Shown: positions 47,511 to 54,663, counted from the stretch's first letter. The stretch is DNA of 64,000 bases from Cladosporium halotolerans (GCF_011745625.1 NW_027191493.1:62001-126000); one strand, 5' to 3'. The notes: generated by a model from the sequence alone, not told the origin. A program made the numbers and translations.

Positions 47511-49357
47511 GGGTCATCTGCTGAGTGTGAAGCCTTGACGCAGCAACGCATGTACTCTAGTAGCGGGTGATCGCTGTGGTGAGACACGGTAGGGGCTTGA
47601 GTATATGCATCAACTCAACAGCAGGACCTAGGAGCTGACTTGAATACCTCAGAGGTTGACCGAGTAGCTTGTGGCGGAAAAGATTGCGGGAGCTCTTCTT
47701 ATGAGAACCATCATGTTTCTGCAATAAGTTGCTAGCAGTGGCGGTCTCTCCACAGTTAGATTTTGTCACTATCAATCCTCGCATCAGTCGCTCAATGATG
47801 GGCACCAAGTCTCATCTTCGCGTCAGCCACTGCCTGCGGCGTCGCAGATCCCGCTTCCTACAGTATTCATAGAGGCCGGCGGTATTGTTTCAGGTGGCAG
47901 GAACACAGAGTATTACTTGCTGCTATCTTTGAATCAGAGGAACTGTTTCACGACATGGTGCGACAACAGCAAGGACGTAAAGACAACTTTTTGAGTACTG
48001 CGCATGCTGGAGGAAAAGAAGATGTTGAGGTGACGGGCTCACAAGGACCGCGAACAGAGCGCACGGAAGGCCGCAAGCCCGTTCATTCTCGTGCTGGAGA
48101 GTGGCAACGCAAAGTGAAAGAATGCGAACACATCAGGCATTATCCACGGATTGTCAATTTCCGCTATCGCAGGGGTCAGCGCAAGGTTGAAGACCAAAGT
48201 GTGAGTGCACTACAGGGTATAGGTGTCCTGTCGACCGTTCCAATGTCAGATCCTTACAAGACGTCGATGGGACTGCGTGACAATAACCTCGGCGTCGATC
48301 TTGGTACAAGGTAATTTTTCGCTGTTCTCGGGATATCGACTTCGAGCAAGAGGGTCTGTTCTTGAGCTTGCGAGGCTTGAGCAAACGGTGTTCGCATTCA
48401 AATAAGGGAGTGACGAGCTCCTGGTCCGCGCGTTGGCTTCTTCGTTGGCTTGGAATCAGAAACCGGGGGTGTAGGGCTGCACATGGCAAGTCTGAAGGAT
48501 GAGACTGGATAGCCGAAGTCTAAATTGTGAAAAGTCTCGCCGTATTTCTCCGTTCTCCTACGAATCAGCAGGGTTGCGATCCGCCGGAAGAGTTGCGACG
48601 AAGGTTTCAAGCACAGAGCCGGGGTGACGAACTTAGAAGCCATCATGATGAGCGCATATTGGTCGGACTGTAACGAGCGCGATATACAAGTCTGGATGGC
48701 ACTCCTGTCACTGATACAAGCCCTTAAACAACCAAGCAAGGGGATAGTAAGACCTTGATAGTCGAACTTAGACTCGCACGCGGCGAGTGAGATGCAACGG
48801 CGGACAGATGCTTCCACTGATTCGGCAAGGTTCGTTGTGACAGCCACCGCCTATCATGCCCGAGATTTGGCCGCCAAACACTATTACGCATGGGCAATAT
48901 ATCGCGGACGGGTGGTGAGAGCCAGTGGTGAGGGCTTCGCGGTGAAGACGAACACGAGGGTCGAATTTTCCACAATTTTCCCATCCGGACATATGGCTTG
49001 AGAATGTTTAGACGAAGTTTGTACCCAGCCATCATCTTGTCCTTAAAGCCGTTGCGCGAGTTTGTTTGGACGGCTGTGCAAACCCACCCTGTCACGAAGC
49101 TCTATTTCGGCCATCCAATGCTGCTCAGCCCCAAGACACCTGCACTTTGACTTTACCAAAGCACGAGATCTAAGTTTCAAAAGCGTGAAGAACCGATATC
49201 CGCCCCCACCCGTGCCAGATCTCGGGGACAAAGGTGGTGATGATGGACTCATGTTCGCCTTTCTCGCATTACTATCTCGGCGTTCTTGAATGCATCTTTC
49301 TATGGCTTCTAAGGCAGCTTGGCGGTATTGAACACGTTCGCTTCCTCATTTCGAAAG

Positions 49358-51842
49358 ATGCAGAATTCATGGAACGATCCCATTCCTTGGTCGAGCGCTG
49401 ACGTCCCTTCTCGACCGGCTCCTAGCACTACTGCGCCGCTACCGGACACATCGCCTATCATCAAGCGCCGCCGGATATCCGACAACAACCAAGGCCGTCG
49501 GGCATCTAAGACCACCAGAGCTTGCGATGCTTGCAAGGTACTATAAGGCCTAATGGGGCTCCTCCACCCAAGTCTTAACATTCTATAGGCAAAGAAAGCT
49601 CGATGCTCGGGCATGAAACCGTGCACCACTTGCGCGGAAAAACAAATCGAGTGTACATATGAAAGCCAGTATCTCCGGGGCCGTCCGCCTACGCCGCAAT
49701 CCTCGACACCAGAAGCCAGCACTCTGAGCGAGCTATCTGGAGTCCGCTCAAACAGTGACACCAAAGAATATGGTATCAGCAATACCCGTAGCTCGCCCGA
49801 GCTCGATCCTTCAGACATTCACGGACAGTACGTCGACCCCACCTGCGGTCTGGCTTTCCTCGTTCGCGCGCAGTCTCGTTTGAAATGCCCGAGTCCTGTC
49901 GATGCTGCCACTCGCCTTGAGCAATGGAATCAGCCGATCATCAGTGCAGGCGATAAGCCTTTGCTCGGTCTGCCGCTCAACGAAACCATTTCAGGCTTTC
50001 CAACGGCCGCTTCACATCCCCAAGCGGACTTTCCATCCGGCGCTGATGCAGTGGAGCTCTTTGATATGTTCTTCGACGTCTGCCTCGCGACGTACAAACC
50101 TCTTCACAGACCTACGGTGGAGAGCTGGTACAGAGGTGCATCTGGCAACATCGCTCAAGGACTGCCATTGACCCAAGGGCTCGGCAGCGCGGAACTATCC
50201 ATTCTGATGAGCATATTCTCTATCGCCACTTACCACCGCTTCAAGTCCCTGGGATACACGGATGTGATAGCGCTTTTGTCGAGGAGCGATGCGCTCTTCA
50301 GACAGGCTTTGGCTTTCACGGATGACGAGATGGGGCCAGCGAGGCTTGAATCGGCGCAGGCACGTCTTTTGCAGATATTTTATTTGATGATGACCTGTCG
50401 AAGGTAGGTCACCATTGCAGTCATGATCAGAAGGTCAAGCGCGATGCTAATATGATCGTAGTACGTTAAGACCTTTTCCATGACCCGTCAGATTCGGTTT
50501 TTGGTTGCTGCGTATTGGGTGTTTCACAAGTGTCCATTTTCGCCTGGCTTGCAGATTTGCAGTACGCTTTGTGTCAAACTGATCGAACTGCTGAGAGCTG
50601 AACGTGAACGAATCACTGACACTGTTTCCAGCAACCCAGGCCTGGTACACTTTCGGGAGCGTGCTCCAGATCATCTCGGCTCTAGGAATGCACAGGCGGG
50701 ACCGCAGACCAATTCTAGGCCCACCGGTCGACTATATCCATTCAGAAATTCGCAAGCGCACATTCTGGAGTACGTACGTTCTCGACAGATATCTTGGCGT
50801 CGTCTTGGGACGGCCTCGGCATTTCCACGACGACGACATCGATCAGGATCTGCCCGATCGCGTCAACGACGAAGAGATGGCCCCGGAAGGTCGTATAACG
50901 AGCGAGAGCTCCGAAGACTGCCAGTTGGATGGTTTCGTGTGGAACATTGAGCTGGCTCGCATTGTTGGGGCGATCTCCCACGATCTTTATCCAATCAAGC
51001 CGCTGTCAGAGACCTCTCGCATTGAGTTGACTCGCAGTTTAGGCAAGAAGCTTGACGCCTGGAAGGCCTCATTACCTGCTTTCCTCAGTACTGTCAAGCC
51101 CTCAAGCCTGGTCCGAAGCTTTCGCAGACAATGCGTTGCGTTACGCCTGGCTTATGACCACGCGGTGATGCATCTCTACCGGCCGTTTCTTTTGCCGCGG
51201 CGAGGCCGTCTCCCAACTCCAGACGCTACAGAGGCTTTCGGCCAGGAGAGCGTCCAGCTCTGCATAGCGGCGGCGCAAGACGCGTTGCGTACCGCGGACG
51301 GGTACGCGCGAGACGGGCCCCTGTTCCACGCTTTCTGGTGGACGCACTACATCACCTTTTGCGCTCTCACTGTCGCTTACGTATGGAACATGCAGCAACC
51401 GAGTGCTGAAATCGAAGGCATTGATCGCCAGAAATTGATGGCGCTTGCTGAGCAGTGCCAGGCACACCTTGCGCAAGCGACAGCTACCAACTCGCCCAGC
51501 CGTCGGTACAGCATCATCCTTGAAGAATTGCGCAACGAGTCAAGAAAGGGCTCTGTCAGCGAAAGCCCAGTGAATCAGCTGTTGTCGCCTGCTGGACTTG
51601 TGGAGTCGCCGGGGATCCAGCGAGGCATCCCACCGGCTGGGCAACCCTATGCTTCACAGCAGTTCGTGCACCAGATGGGAGGGCCGTTTGTCCAGTGGCA
51701 GGCCTCGGATTGGTTGGAGGTCGACGCATCGGTATTTCTCCGTGGCTTGCCACAATAGAGATGCATCTGACACGCTTTACAGGTTTATGGATCAATACAG
51801 GGTTCAAGTCCTAATGTGCATTGGTTTGGAGGCGGTCAATAG
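49358..51842 (+). CDS. Zn(II)2Cys6 transcription factor with fungal-specific TF domain, RhaR-related; 4 exons, the second intron a nested twin intron
   Basis: RACDACK|AKKARCSGMKPCTTCAEKQIEC binuclear cluster; ESAQARL…QAWYTFG…ALGMHR, RKRTFWSTYVLDRYLGVVLGRP and NSPSRRYSIILEELR. Confidence 0.9.
50403..50631 (+). other. [D1,2] spliceosomal twin intron (stwintron): internal intron 50404-50461 nested in the donor of a 171-nt external intron
   Basis: G|GTAGGT…GCTAAT…TAG|TACGT…ACTGAC…CCAG. Removing the internal intron creates a GTACGT donor, and this route restores the reading frame. Confidence 0.8.
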
Positions 51843-52391
51843 AACCGTCTAGGTGTCCCTTGCTCTGCCAGCACGCGTGGAAGGCCGGGAATTTGGTAGA
51901 AGATGCGCTGCAAATATATGACCGCATCCTTCTGATCGTGGTAAAATCTTAGTCGATTTGGATCACAGGTCCCCCTACTTCGATAAACATCTCTTCTTCC
52001 AACCTAACGATTAAGCGATTTCTAGATAATGCATCGAAGCTTAAGCGAGCTCGATCCAGGCGGCGGAGATGAAAAACTGTTTAAATTGAAGACACCGTCA
52101 CCAAGGACACTCCTATGAATTGCGTGATATCCACGCGTACATACATGTGTGGGATGCAGTGGAGCGTGCGAGCTCGCATGACGTTGGCTGGCGGCGTTTG
52201 GGGAAAGGGAGGGCCGCTCCAGCTCCCCCGCGAAGCTTGGTCGTCAGCCTGCATGAAGCTCGACCTGCCGCCGCCATCACCTGCGCCATACACAACCAAC
52301 TTCATTGTCATCACCTCACTCCCTGCACCAACCATCACCGGCAACTCCTCCAGTACACGCTCATTGCCTGCCGTCCGCCACACCCATCACC

Positions 52392-53125
52392 ATGTCGGCT
52401 CCTACAGCTTCCCGCCTCCTCCGCCAGGCCACGCGCTCCGCCTCCCGCCCCATCCTTCGCTCGCGCCAGGCCAATGCATTTCACCTCCAGGCCTGCCGCA
52501 CCGCCGTCCCTGTCGCCAGAGCCGCTATCTCCTCTAGGGCTTTTGCCTCCACTACTCCCAGAGCGACCGGCCTCATGCCCGACACCGAAAACCCGAGCAC
52601 GCCTGAGCGCGAGTCGACTACCGCTGAGCTGATGGCCGCCGAGATCACCGATGAAGAATTCCACACGCTGTCCGACCAGTTCCTCGAGAAGGTCCACGAG
52701 AAGGCCGAGCAGGTTCAGGAGGGCAGGGAGGATGTCGAGGTCGAGTATGCTGTAAGTGAATTGATGTCGTGCGACCTTAATGGCCGGCTAGCTCTACACA
52801 AGAACGCACAGGTATCTAACGAAACTCACAGGCCGGCGTTCTGAACATCGTCTTCCCGCCCAACGGGACGTATGTTCTCAACAAGCAGCCGCCCAACAAG
52901 CAGATCTGGCTCTCCTCGCCGCTCTCCGGCCCCAAGCGCTTCGACTGGACGATGCAGGGCGAGGGCATGAACGAGAAGGAGGGCTCGGGCGAGGGCGACT
53001 GGATCTACCTGAGGGACGGCAGCTCGCTGAGCGAGCTTCTGAGGAAGGAGCTGGGCTTCTCCGTCGATTTGAGTGGACATGAGGAGGCTATGGAGGAGGC
53101 TCTTAGCAAGGATCCTACTGAGTAG
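52392..53125 (+). CDS. YFH1: Frataxin, mitochondrial iron chaperone; 2 exons (intron ~52752-52831)
   Basis: Arg/Ser/Ala-rich presequence; [43 protein letters not shown] and WIYLRDG. Confidence 0.95.
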
Positions 53126-53655: not shown

Positions 53656-53969
53656 TCACGCAGCAACCCCAACCGCCTGTCCTCCCACCCCTCCATCCGG
53701 CTTCGGCAGATCCTCCACGTCGAAAATCACCCGGATCATCAGGCTGCAGCTCGGGCACACCGCGATCTCCTCGCCGTCCCGCAGGTCGTCGATCGTGATC
53801 TGGAAGCGGTCGCCGCACGGGCACGGGTAGGTGTAGGTTTCGAGCGCCGCGTCATAGGTCATGTCCTGGTCGGGAAGTGTTAGCGCGAGGGGGGGGGAAG
53901 GGACGAGCGGGGTGGTACAGGCAGGCATACCTCGATCTCGATTTCGTCGTAGATGTTCTCGTCGGACAT
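53656..53969 (-). CDS. DPH3: Diphthamide biosynthesis protein 3 (CSL zinc finger, Kti11); 2 exons
   Basis: [18 protein letters not shown]…[11 protein letters not shown]…[15 protein letters not shown]. Confidence 0.95.
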
Positions 53970-54663
53970 TTTGGCGGTCGAGTGCGCTTGCCTTGGGCGA
54001 GGTGAGGTGGGGTGGTTTGCGACCGGAGCGTGGCGTGAGTCTCGAAGTTCGCGGATGGAGAAATGTTCGAGATGTGGCGGAAATTTGGGCGGCGACACGT
54101 GAAGATCCGGGGAAAAGTGGCGGACCCTGAATTGGAAGCCATCCCACCTGTTTGGCGCTCTTGTACGCTCTCCGCGACTATTGTGAATTTTGATGCCCGC
54201 TGAGATACAGCTCTGGCCGACGGAGACCGATCGATTTCGCGAAATATCAGACGATAGGTCAATGCTGAAGTGGAAATTTGATCGAGCAAGACGTCGGCTT
54301 TGCCAGGGAACGCATCAAAGTCGGACGGACGCCAGTCAAAAGACCAAGCGGCGGAAACACATGCATGCTTCCCTATTTGAACCTAAGGAACCCTTGCTAC
54401 AGTACGTAGGTAGACATTATATCAAGCCAAGTATGATAATCATCTGGAGAATCAATCGTCGATCTATTAAAATCTCAATAAAGCCATAATGTAGCAGCAA
54501 TGTCTCGCTCGATCTAATCCGGCCAAGAAGAAAACACAAGCCTGCAGCACCCAGCTAGATCAATAAATAGGTATCATTCCTCGTCCACCCTTGGGCGCTC
54601 CGCCGACATATCATCCTCGCCCTTTTCTCGCAAGTATCACTAATCTTCCTCCCTTCCTCGATA

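Follow-up and report, generated by a model that had tools for sequence, protein, structure and literature searches.

'Uniquely occurring' [D1,2] stwintrons, 114-313 nt in length, have been described in Hypoxylon sp. CO27-5 and in other Hypoxylaceae, and most of those identified in Hypoxylon are common to orthologues across 16 other taxa, as set out in the sections of PMC9024468 devoted to them. The same sections provide a search formula for this type, 5'-G/GT..DYTRAY..HAG/TRWGY..DYTRAY..HAG, with 24 donors, in which DYTRAY lies 4-20 nt before HAG and the internal intron measures at least 42 nt; in model C of this formula, the external donor-to-branch distance ranges from 111 to 200 nt. Sister stwintrons, which carry terminal or near-terminal inverted repeats, have been reported in Hypoxylaceae and Xylariaceae in the corresponding parts of PMC8469720 and PMC12403724. 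An alternative [A2,3] route for a stwintron starting with GG is presented in the relevant section of PMC5639578. Occasional missplicing of stwintrons is mentioned in PMC12403724, and nonsense-mediated decay usually eliminates the RNA misspliced at the distal site according to PMC9024468, both sources being cited here for their passages on splicing errors.

In the 64-kb stretch of DNA analysed here, which we call the window, the 229-nt element located at positions 50403-50631 of the + strand is very probably a [D1,2] stwintron lying in an Asg1-like Zn2Cys6/Fungal_trans gene. The element is in phase 1 and its apparent ends are GG..AG. The G at position 50403, which is also present in X1 contig 5, would open the split donor that belongs to the external intron. 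It is followed by a 58-nt internal intron (50404-50461), which comprises the donor GTAGGT, the branch element GCTAAT (50446-50451), a spacer of 7 nt and the acceptor TAG (50459-50461). The remainder of the external intron (50462-50631) measures 170 nt, or 171 nt with G50403, and exhibits TACGT at its start and, at its end, ACTGAC (50615-50620), a spacer of 8 nt and CAG (50629-50631). The flanking exons read ..TGT CGA A up to position 50402 and CA ACC CAG GCC TGG from position 50632. An earlier sequence-only reading had quoted these motifs, and every base of them was found at its position when checked against the sequence. A pairing of exon and intron letters is also observed at the proximal boundary, between 50387-50396 and 50406-50415 (10 nt, 90% complementary); it would put the GG/GT site in a 9-nt loop and may be due to chance.

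Host gene and reading frame

The element lies in a Zn_clus and Fungal_trans transcription-factor gene made of three exons (49358-51758, + strand). Exon 1 (49358-49537) comprises 60 codons, from the ATG to ..RACDACK, and its translation covers the first half of the Zn2Cys6 cluster. Intron 1 (49538-49588) is an ordinary intron of 51 nt (GTACTA..CTTAAC..TAG) that splits the Zn cluster; its removal, with a GT..AG joint uniting exons 1 and 2, is seen in the X2 and X3 contigs, and its position is shared with 21 related loci. Exon 2 (49589-50402) starts with AKKARCSGMKPCTTC.. when translated, contains what remains of Zn_clus together with the initial portion of Fungal_trans, and ends with ..MMTCR plus an A, the first base of a bridging codon. 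Exon 3 (50632-51758) provides the CA of this bridging codon, ACA (Thr), then TQAWYTFG.. and the rest of Fungal_trans up to the stop codon at 51756-51758. In a Pfam search, Zn_clus (PF00172, CX2CX6C..) was recovered with an E-value of 1.2e-05, and PF04082 was recovered in two halves flanking positions 50403-50631, with profile positions 2-109 in exon 2 and 112-261 in exon 3 (E 1.2e-21).

Among the matches listed, the names of the homologues are mostly hypothetical protein or 'fungal specific transcription factor domain', with some instances of 'Activator of stress genes 1' and 'Activator of stress genes 5', and the closest named homologues, from Cladosporium, Oleoguttula and Aureobasidium, show 51-59% identity. 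To judge from these homologues, the host gene looks like an Asg1-like Zn2Cys6/Fungal_trans factor of a dothideomycete-like ascomycete. No protein of at least 656 aa exceeding 69% identity was found among the best 120 listed from a collection of 5.8 billion proteins, which is consistent with the earlier claim that this case is unannotated. Two neighbouring genes were also observed: a frataxin-like one at 52257-53122 (+), whose two ORF pieces (PF01491) flank a short intron near 52.8 kb, as well as an ORF at 53659-54177 (-) with a CSL zinc-finger, which is DPH3-like.

With regard to the join between exons 2 and 3, splicing in one step from the visible donor fails to preserve the frame. The translation obtained from donor 50404 and acceptor 50631 is ..MMTCRSNPGLVHF.., with a +1 frameshift and G1 left in the exon, and the one obtained from donor 50404 and acceptor 50639 is ..MMTCRRPGTLSG.., which adds a stop to the frameshift. 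Both are out of frame, as the sequence-only reading had claimed. The join 50402/50632 gives ..MMTCRTTQAWYTFG.., that is ..MMTCR-T-TQAWYTFG.., and this frame remains open to the stop at 51756-51758. In our set of homologues, which consists of the best 120 of at least 656 aa from the 351 with E <= 1e-20, ..(C/S/G/A/Y)R is separated from the motif N/T-x-(A/G/S)W by exactly one residue in 120 of the 120 sequences (43-69% identity). As this one-residue spacing is invariant, the join 50402/50632 is the only one that fits the homologues. The spacing that had previously been presented as the expected one in this domain thus holds in all 120 of the listed homologues. Furthermore, with the codons CGA (50399-50401) and ACC (50634-50636) fixed, a single bridging codon combined with an AG acceptor can only be obtained from A (50402) and CA (50632-50633).

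Four other routes through this region were considered and rejected. The donor GTCGAA at 50397, used with acceptor 50631, is in frame (..MMTSTQAW..), but this join loses two residues, including the arginine found in 120 of 120 homologues, and it is not used by the X2 contig. For routes through a micro-exon, the frame meets a TGA within 7 codons after removal of 50404-50461, and there is no GT at the phase needed. As GTACGT is also present in the primary transcript, 50461-50631 could be removed first; in that case no acceptor remains for the rest, and the next AG, at 50639, leads to a frameshift. The [A2,3] route requires the downstream exon to start with G, and here it starts with C (50632).

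Contigs that keep or lack the element

Runs X1, X2, X3 and X6 were chosen among the runs sharing 31-mers with the gene and were analysed as contigs. The 'RNA?' labels of these runs are guesses, the contigs of X3 and X6 do not cover the element, and contigs drop rare forms. X2 contig 9 (2289 nt, depth 8.7) aligns to positions 49300-49535, 49587-50402, and 50632-51733 of the window. At its second joint, it skips exactly the 229 nt of the element, with GG..AG ends, zero positional ambiguity, and 255 letters on the shorter side. The mature GG..AG junction 50402/50632 predicted by the sequence-only reading was therefore recovered exactly, in one contig from one run and from another strain. The same contig also lacks intron 1, with a GT..AG joint after a 2-nt cut shift, and intron 1 is missing from X3 contig 11 as well. 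As both introns are missing from X2 contig 9, we read it as cDNA, and as 48 of its 2154 aligned bases (about 2%) differ from the window, we assign it to another strain. A further observation concerns X3 contig 13, which begins exactly at 50632, while another X3 contig ends at 50345; such a unitig break at an exon edge could mean that several isoforms are present.

Both introns are present in X1, which for this reason looks like DNA. X1 contig 5 covers positions 50249-50676; it has 0 gaps, and no insertion or deletion is listed for it. Thirteen of its 14 differences from the window are listed, and nine of them lie inside the element, at 50407, 50534, 50536, 50537, 50572, 50579, 50603, 50622, and 50624. 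None of these nine changes falls in TAG/TACGT, GCTAAT, ACTGAC, or CAG, although the fourteenth, unlisted difference might. The G>A change at 50407, which is the only listed change inside the internal intron, converts GTAGGT into GTAAGT and thereby improves the internal donor. X1 contig 5 and the X2 contig also have two changes in the flanks in common, 50362 A>G and 50641 C>G. Given these common variants, the X2 strain most likely carries the element too.

This last point bears on the possibility of a presence/absence polymorphism, in which the 229 nt would be a recent insertion that cannot be removed, the copy of the gene in the window would be broken, and the DNA of the X2 strain would be devoid of the insertion. 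As the X2 contig comes from a different strain, DNA without the element would indeed yield the same contig unspliced, and the divergence of about 2% is compatible with such a difference between strains; moreover, no intron is present here in 43 of 43 relatives, so the element is young. However, intron 1, which 21 genomic relatives have conserved, is likewise missing from the X2 and X3 contigs, and this gives them the appearance of cDNA, whereas X1 contig 5 carries the element together with the flanking variants of X2. In addition, the frames of both exons are intact up to the stop and the canonical signals are complete. We consider this explanation highly improbable.

The X1 contig also bears on a possible assembly error. 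If one G had been added at 50403/50404, the true intron would measure 228 nt, have ordinary GT..AG ends and keep the frame, given that one G fewer would put the intron extending from GTAGGT to 50631 in frame. Nevertheless, GG is confirmed in X1 contig 5, which comes from another run and another strain and shows 0 gaps over 50249-50676, and run X15 contains 1.00 of the sampled words, although X15 is perhaps the source sample. An extra G is, in our view, scarcely credible.

Splicing signals and the order of the two reactions

The element exhibits every motif and spacing of the published formula. GTAGGT and GTACGT are both among the 24 donors; GCTAAT lies 7 nt before the acceptor TAG and ACTGAC 8 nt before the acceptor CAG, both branch elements matching DYTRAY; and the external donor-to-branch distance of 148 nt lies inside the range of model C. 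When both strands of the 64-kb window are searched, the formula matches once, at 50403, and block-shuffled windows give 0.19 matches per window with the spacing of model C and 0.16 with that of model A. A greedy match to the formula extends to 50639; position 50631 fits equally and is the acceptor seen in the contig. Taken alone, the match to the formula would be a weak argument; it gains its weight by coinciding with both the frame problem and the join found in the cDNA.

To our knowledge, a U2 intron cannot start with GG, and U2 donors with GG are essentially unknown. As the remainder of a U2 intron must begin with GT, the internal intron must start at 50404 and end at an AG that precedes a T. 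There are four such AG/T candidates from 50404, ending at 50420, 50461, 50530, and 50562, respectively. Position 50461 is the sole candidate with a CTRAY within 40 nt (CTAAT, with the branch A 11 nt from the acceptor), and no other candidate yields a consensus donor; its own, GTACGT, is a good one. The three other candidates were discarded: they are devoid of a branch element, and two of them yield poor donors. Among 20000 dinucleotide-preserving shuffles of the interior, 74 contained the strict nested arrangement and 4288 a loose version of it.

These figures are relevant to another explanation, according to which the 229 nt would be removed in one step as a non-canonical GG-AG intron, the internal signals being coincidental. 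The contigs show the mature GG..AG join only and no contig of the intermediate, in which exon 2 would lead into TACGT.. (50403/50462), is listed, which would agree with a single step, although contigs drop rare forms. Against this, such a donor is, as noted above, essentially unknown for U2 introns, strict nested signals arise in just 74 of the 20000 shuffles while the published formula is satisfied as well, and the GG site would be outcompeted by a strong donor lying just one base from it, the GTAGGT at 50404, which follows AAG. Removal in one step thus appears quite improbable.

The splicing of the [D1,2] stwintron would proceed as follows. The short internal U2 intron (50404-50461) would be excised first, which would bring G50403 next to the TACGT that starts at 50462 and so rebuild GTACGT, the donor of the external intron. 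A second standard reaction would then excise the external intron of 171 nt by means of ACTGAC and the CAG ending at 50631. The exons would unite as CGA A/CA ACC, which would restore the conserved ..CR-T-TQAW.. of Fungal_trans. We infer this order of the two reactions by exclusion of the other routes.

Origin of the element and comparison with described systems

Related loci were collected from metagenome contigs, several of which are 60-300 kb long. These 49 loci show 32-68% identity, and six of them are short of the site (L010, L021, L030, L031, L040, and L045). Each of the remaining 43 loci spans the site and has exactly 3 nt between the two motifs, and hence no intron is present. An intron is found at the position of intron 1 in 21 of these 43 loci, with a length of 53-68 nt in 19 of them, 235 nt in L011, and 255 nt in L012; as intron 1 is kept, these 21 loci are genomic DNA. 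The conservation in orthologues, which had been proposed as a check, is therefore not observed, since 43 of 43 covering loci have no intron at the site. The joined exons of the window give one codon where the relatives have one, so the fit is seamless. From these alignments, we infer a recent gain of the element in this lineage through seamless insertion, after the split from the relatives of about 68% identity.

A tandem duplication does not account for this gain: the only direct repeat is one of 10 nt and 90% (50390-50399 and 50480-50489), and the ends of the intron are, by eye, unlike the exon flanks. The long introns 1 of L011 (1869-2103) and L012 (304-558) were also considered as stwintrons and discarded, as they are ordinary (GTAAAT/GTAAAC..CACTAAC..CAG) and without the [D1,2] motif. 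Two other features of the introns of the relatives were noted. The loci L015-L019 (about 56% identity) exhibit a GC-AG intron, GCATGT..CTGAC/TTAAC..AG, at the position in the Zn cluster (e.g. 1974-2037 in L016), where the window has a GT-AG intron. L026 and L027 are near-identical, and a 58-nt intron in the Zn cluster is present in L027 only; L026 probably derives from cDNA or represents an allele that has lost the intron.

With blastn (word size 7), neither the 64-kb window nor the 49 related loci yielded a second copy of the element, and the merged [D1,2] motif had no match on the + strand of these loci (234,744 nt). The search for a terminal inverted repeat recovered arms of 8-11 nt only, none of which links both ends. 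At -60.7 kcal/mol, the element is predicted to fold no more stably than shuffled sequences, whose mean is -62.1 (z +0.33). When the element is folded by itself, the minimum-free-energy structure pairs the GUCA of the 5' end with the UGAC of the external branch element.

The sequence-only reading had also attributed to the element a splicing-level control on the factor. As a regulatory switch, the choice between the two-step route and the distal site, with its +1 frameshift, would tune the level of the factor; this idea is compatible with the stwintron and does not replace it. The use of the distal site does shift the frame, the 10-nt complementarity between 50387-50396 and 50406-50415 could mask the proximal donor, and the start of X3 contig 13 at 50632 would allow for more than one neighbour on its left. 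On the other hand, the frameshifted join 50403/50632 is not listed in the 4 runs (contigs drop rare forms), the fold with its z of +0.33 is not stabler than that of shuffles, and 43 relatives that cover the site manage without an intron here. Moreover, published use of the distal site corresponds to infrequent missplicing in the passages of PMC9024468 and PMC12403724 that deal with it. These passages describe missplicing and not regulation. The claim of a control receives no support here, and we regard such a switch as improbable.

Several practical consequences can be pointed out. Gene predictors and RNA aligners that accept only GT-AG introns will misannotate this factor, which will appear frameshifted, split, or spliced from a wrong donor that deletes the invariant arginine. 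The element adds a transcript-supported [D1,2] stwintron outside Xylariales. It also offers a clean case of the recent seamless gain of a complex intron, with 43 of 43 relatives uninterrupted, and hence a data point on the origins of introns. In contrast, it leaves existing knowledge of stwintron splicing unchanged.

The first step of the proposed mechanism has a parallel in recursive splicing at the ratchet points of Drosophila, where a 5' splice site is regenerated after a zero-length exon in very long introns. A donor is likewise regenerated in the first step here, with the difference that, in the element, the upstream G becomes intronic, which accounts for the apparent GG start. In Dothideomycetes, the introner-like elements, a subject associated with van der Burgt et al. 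2012, are reportedly multi-copy single introns that are similar in sequence and have a stable predicted structure. The element shares with them a recent seamless gain in a dothideomycete-like genome, whereas neither their copies nor their stable fold was found for it in the sequences searched. It is conceivable, though unlikely, that this recent seamless gain of a nested element at an unoccupied dothideomycete position represents one copy of a [D1,2] family that is still propagating. If this were true, the propagation of stwintrons, which in the text of PMC12403724 and PMC8469720 concerns Xylariales so far, would reach another class and be linked to the introner-like elements found there.

Like the sister stwintrons, the element is of the [D1,2] type, occupies a new lineage-specific position, and is seamless in a continuous exon sequence; it differs from them in having no terminal inverted repeat, an ordinary fold, and no copy in the 64 kb and the 49 loci. 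On present evidence, copies having been sought in these 64 kb and 49 loci, it is closer to the 'uniquely occurring' stwintrons than to the 'sister' ones. The known dothideomycete [D1,2] stwintron that starts with GG is of the same type, but the C at 50632 leaves the [D1,2] route as the only one here. The term 'transcription factor' is absent from the text of PMC12403724, PMC9024468, and PMC8469720, whose supplementary gene tables, being outside this search, could list a zinc-cluster host. The element is probably an unreported stwintron of the known [D1,2] type.

With respect to the unique stwintrons of Hypoxylaceae, the element is known here from the mature join and the sequence and not from the intermediate. 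Unlike those of Hypoxylon that are common to orthologues, it is absent from all 43 covering related loci, and its host is dothideomycete-like, whereas theirs belong to Xylariales. Nevertheless, it is like them in its architecture, in its size, which falls in the same range, and in the +1 frameshift that results from the distal sites; as with the element, they are without similarity to other introns and were verified by the exon-exon join of the transcript.
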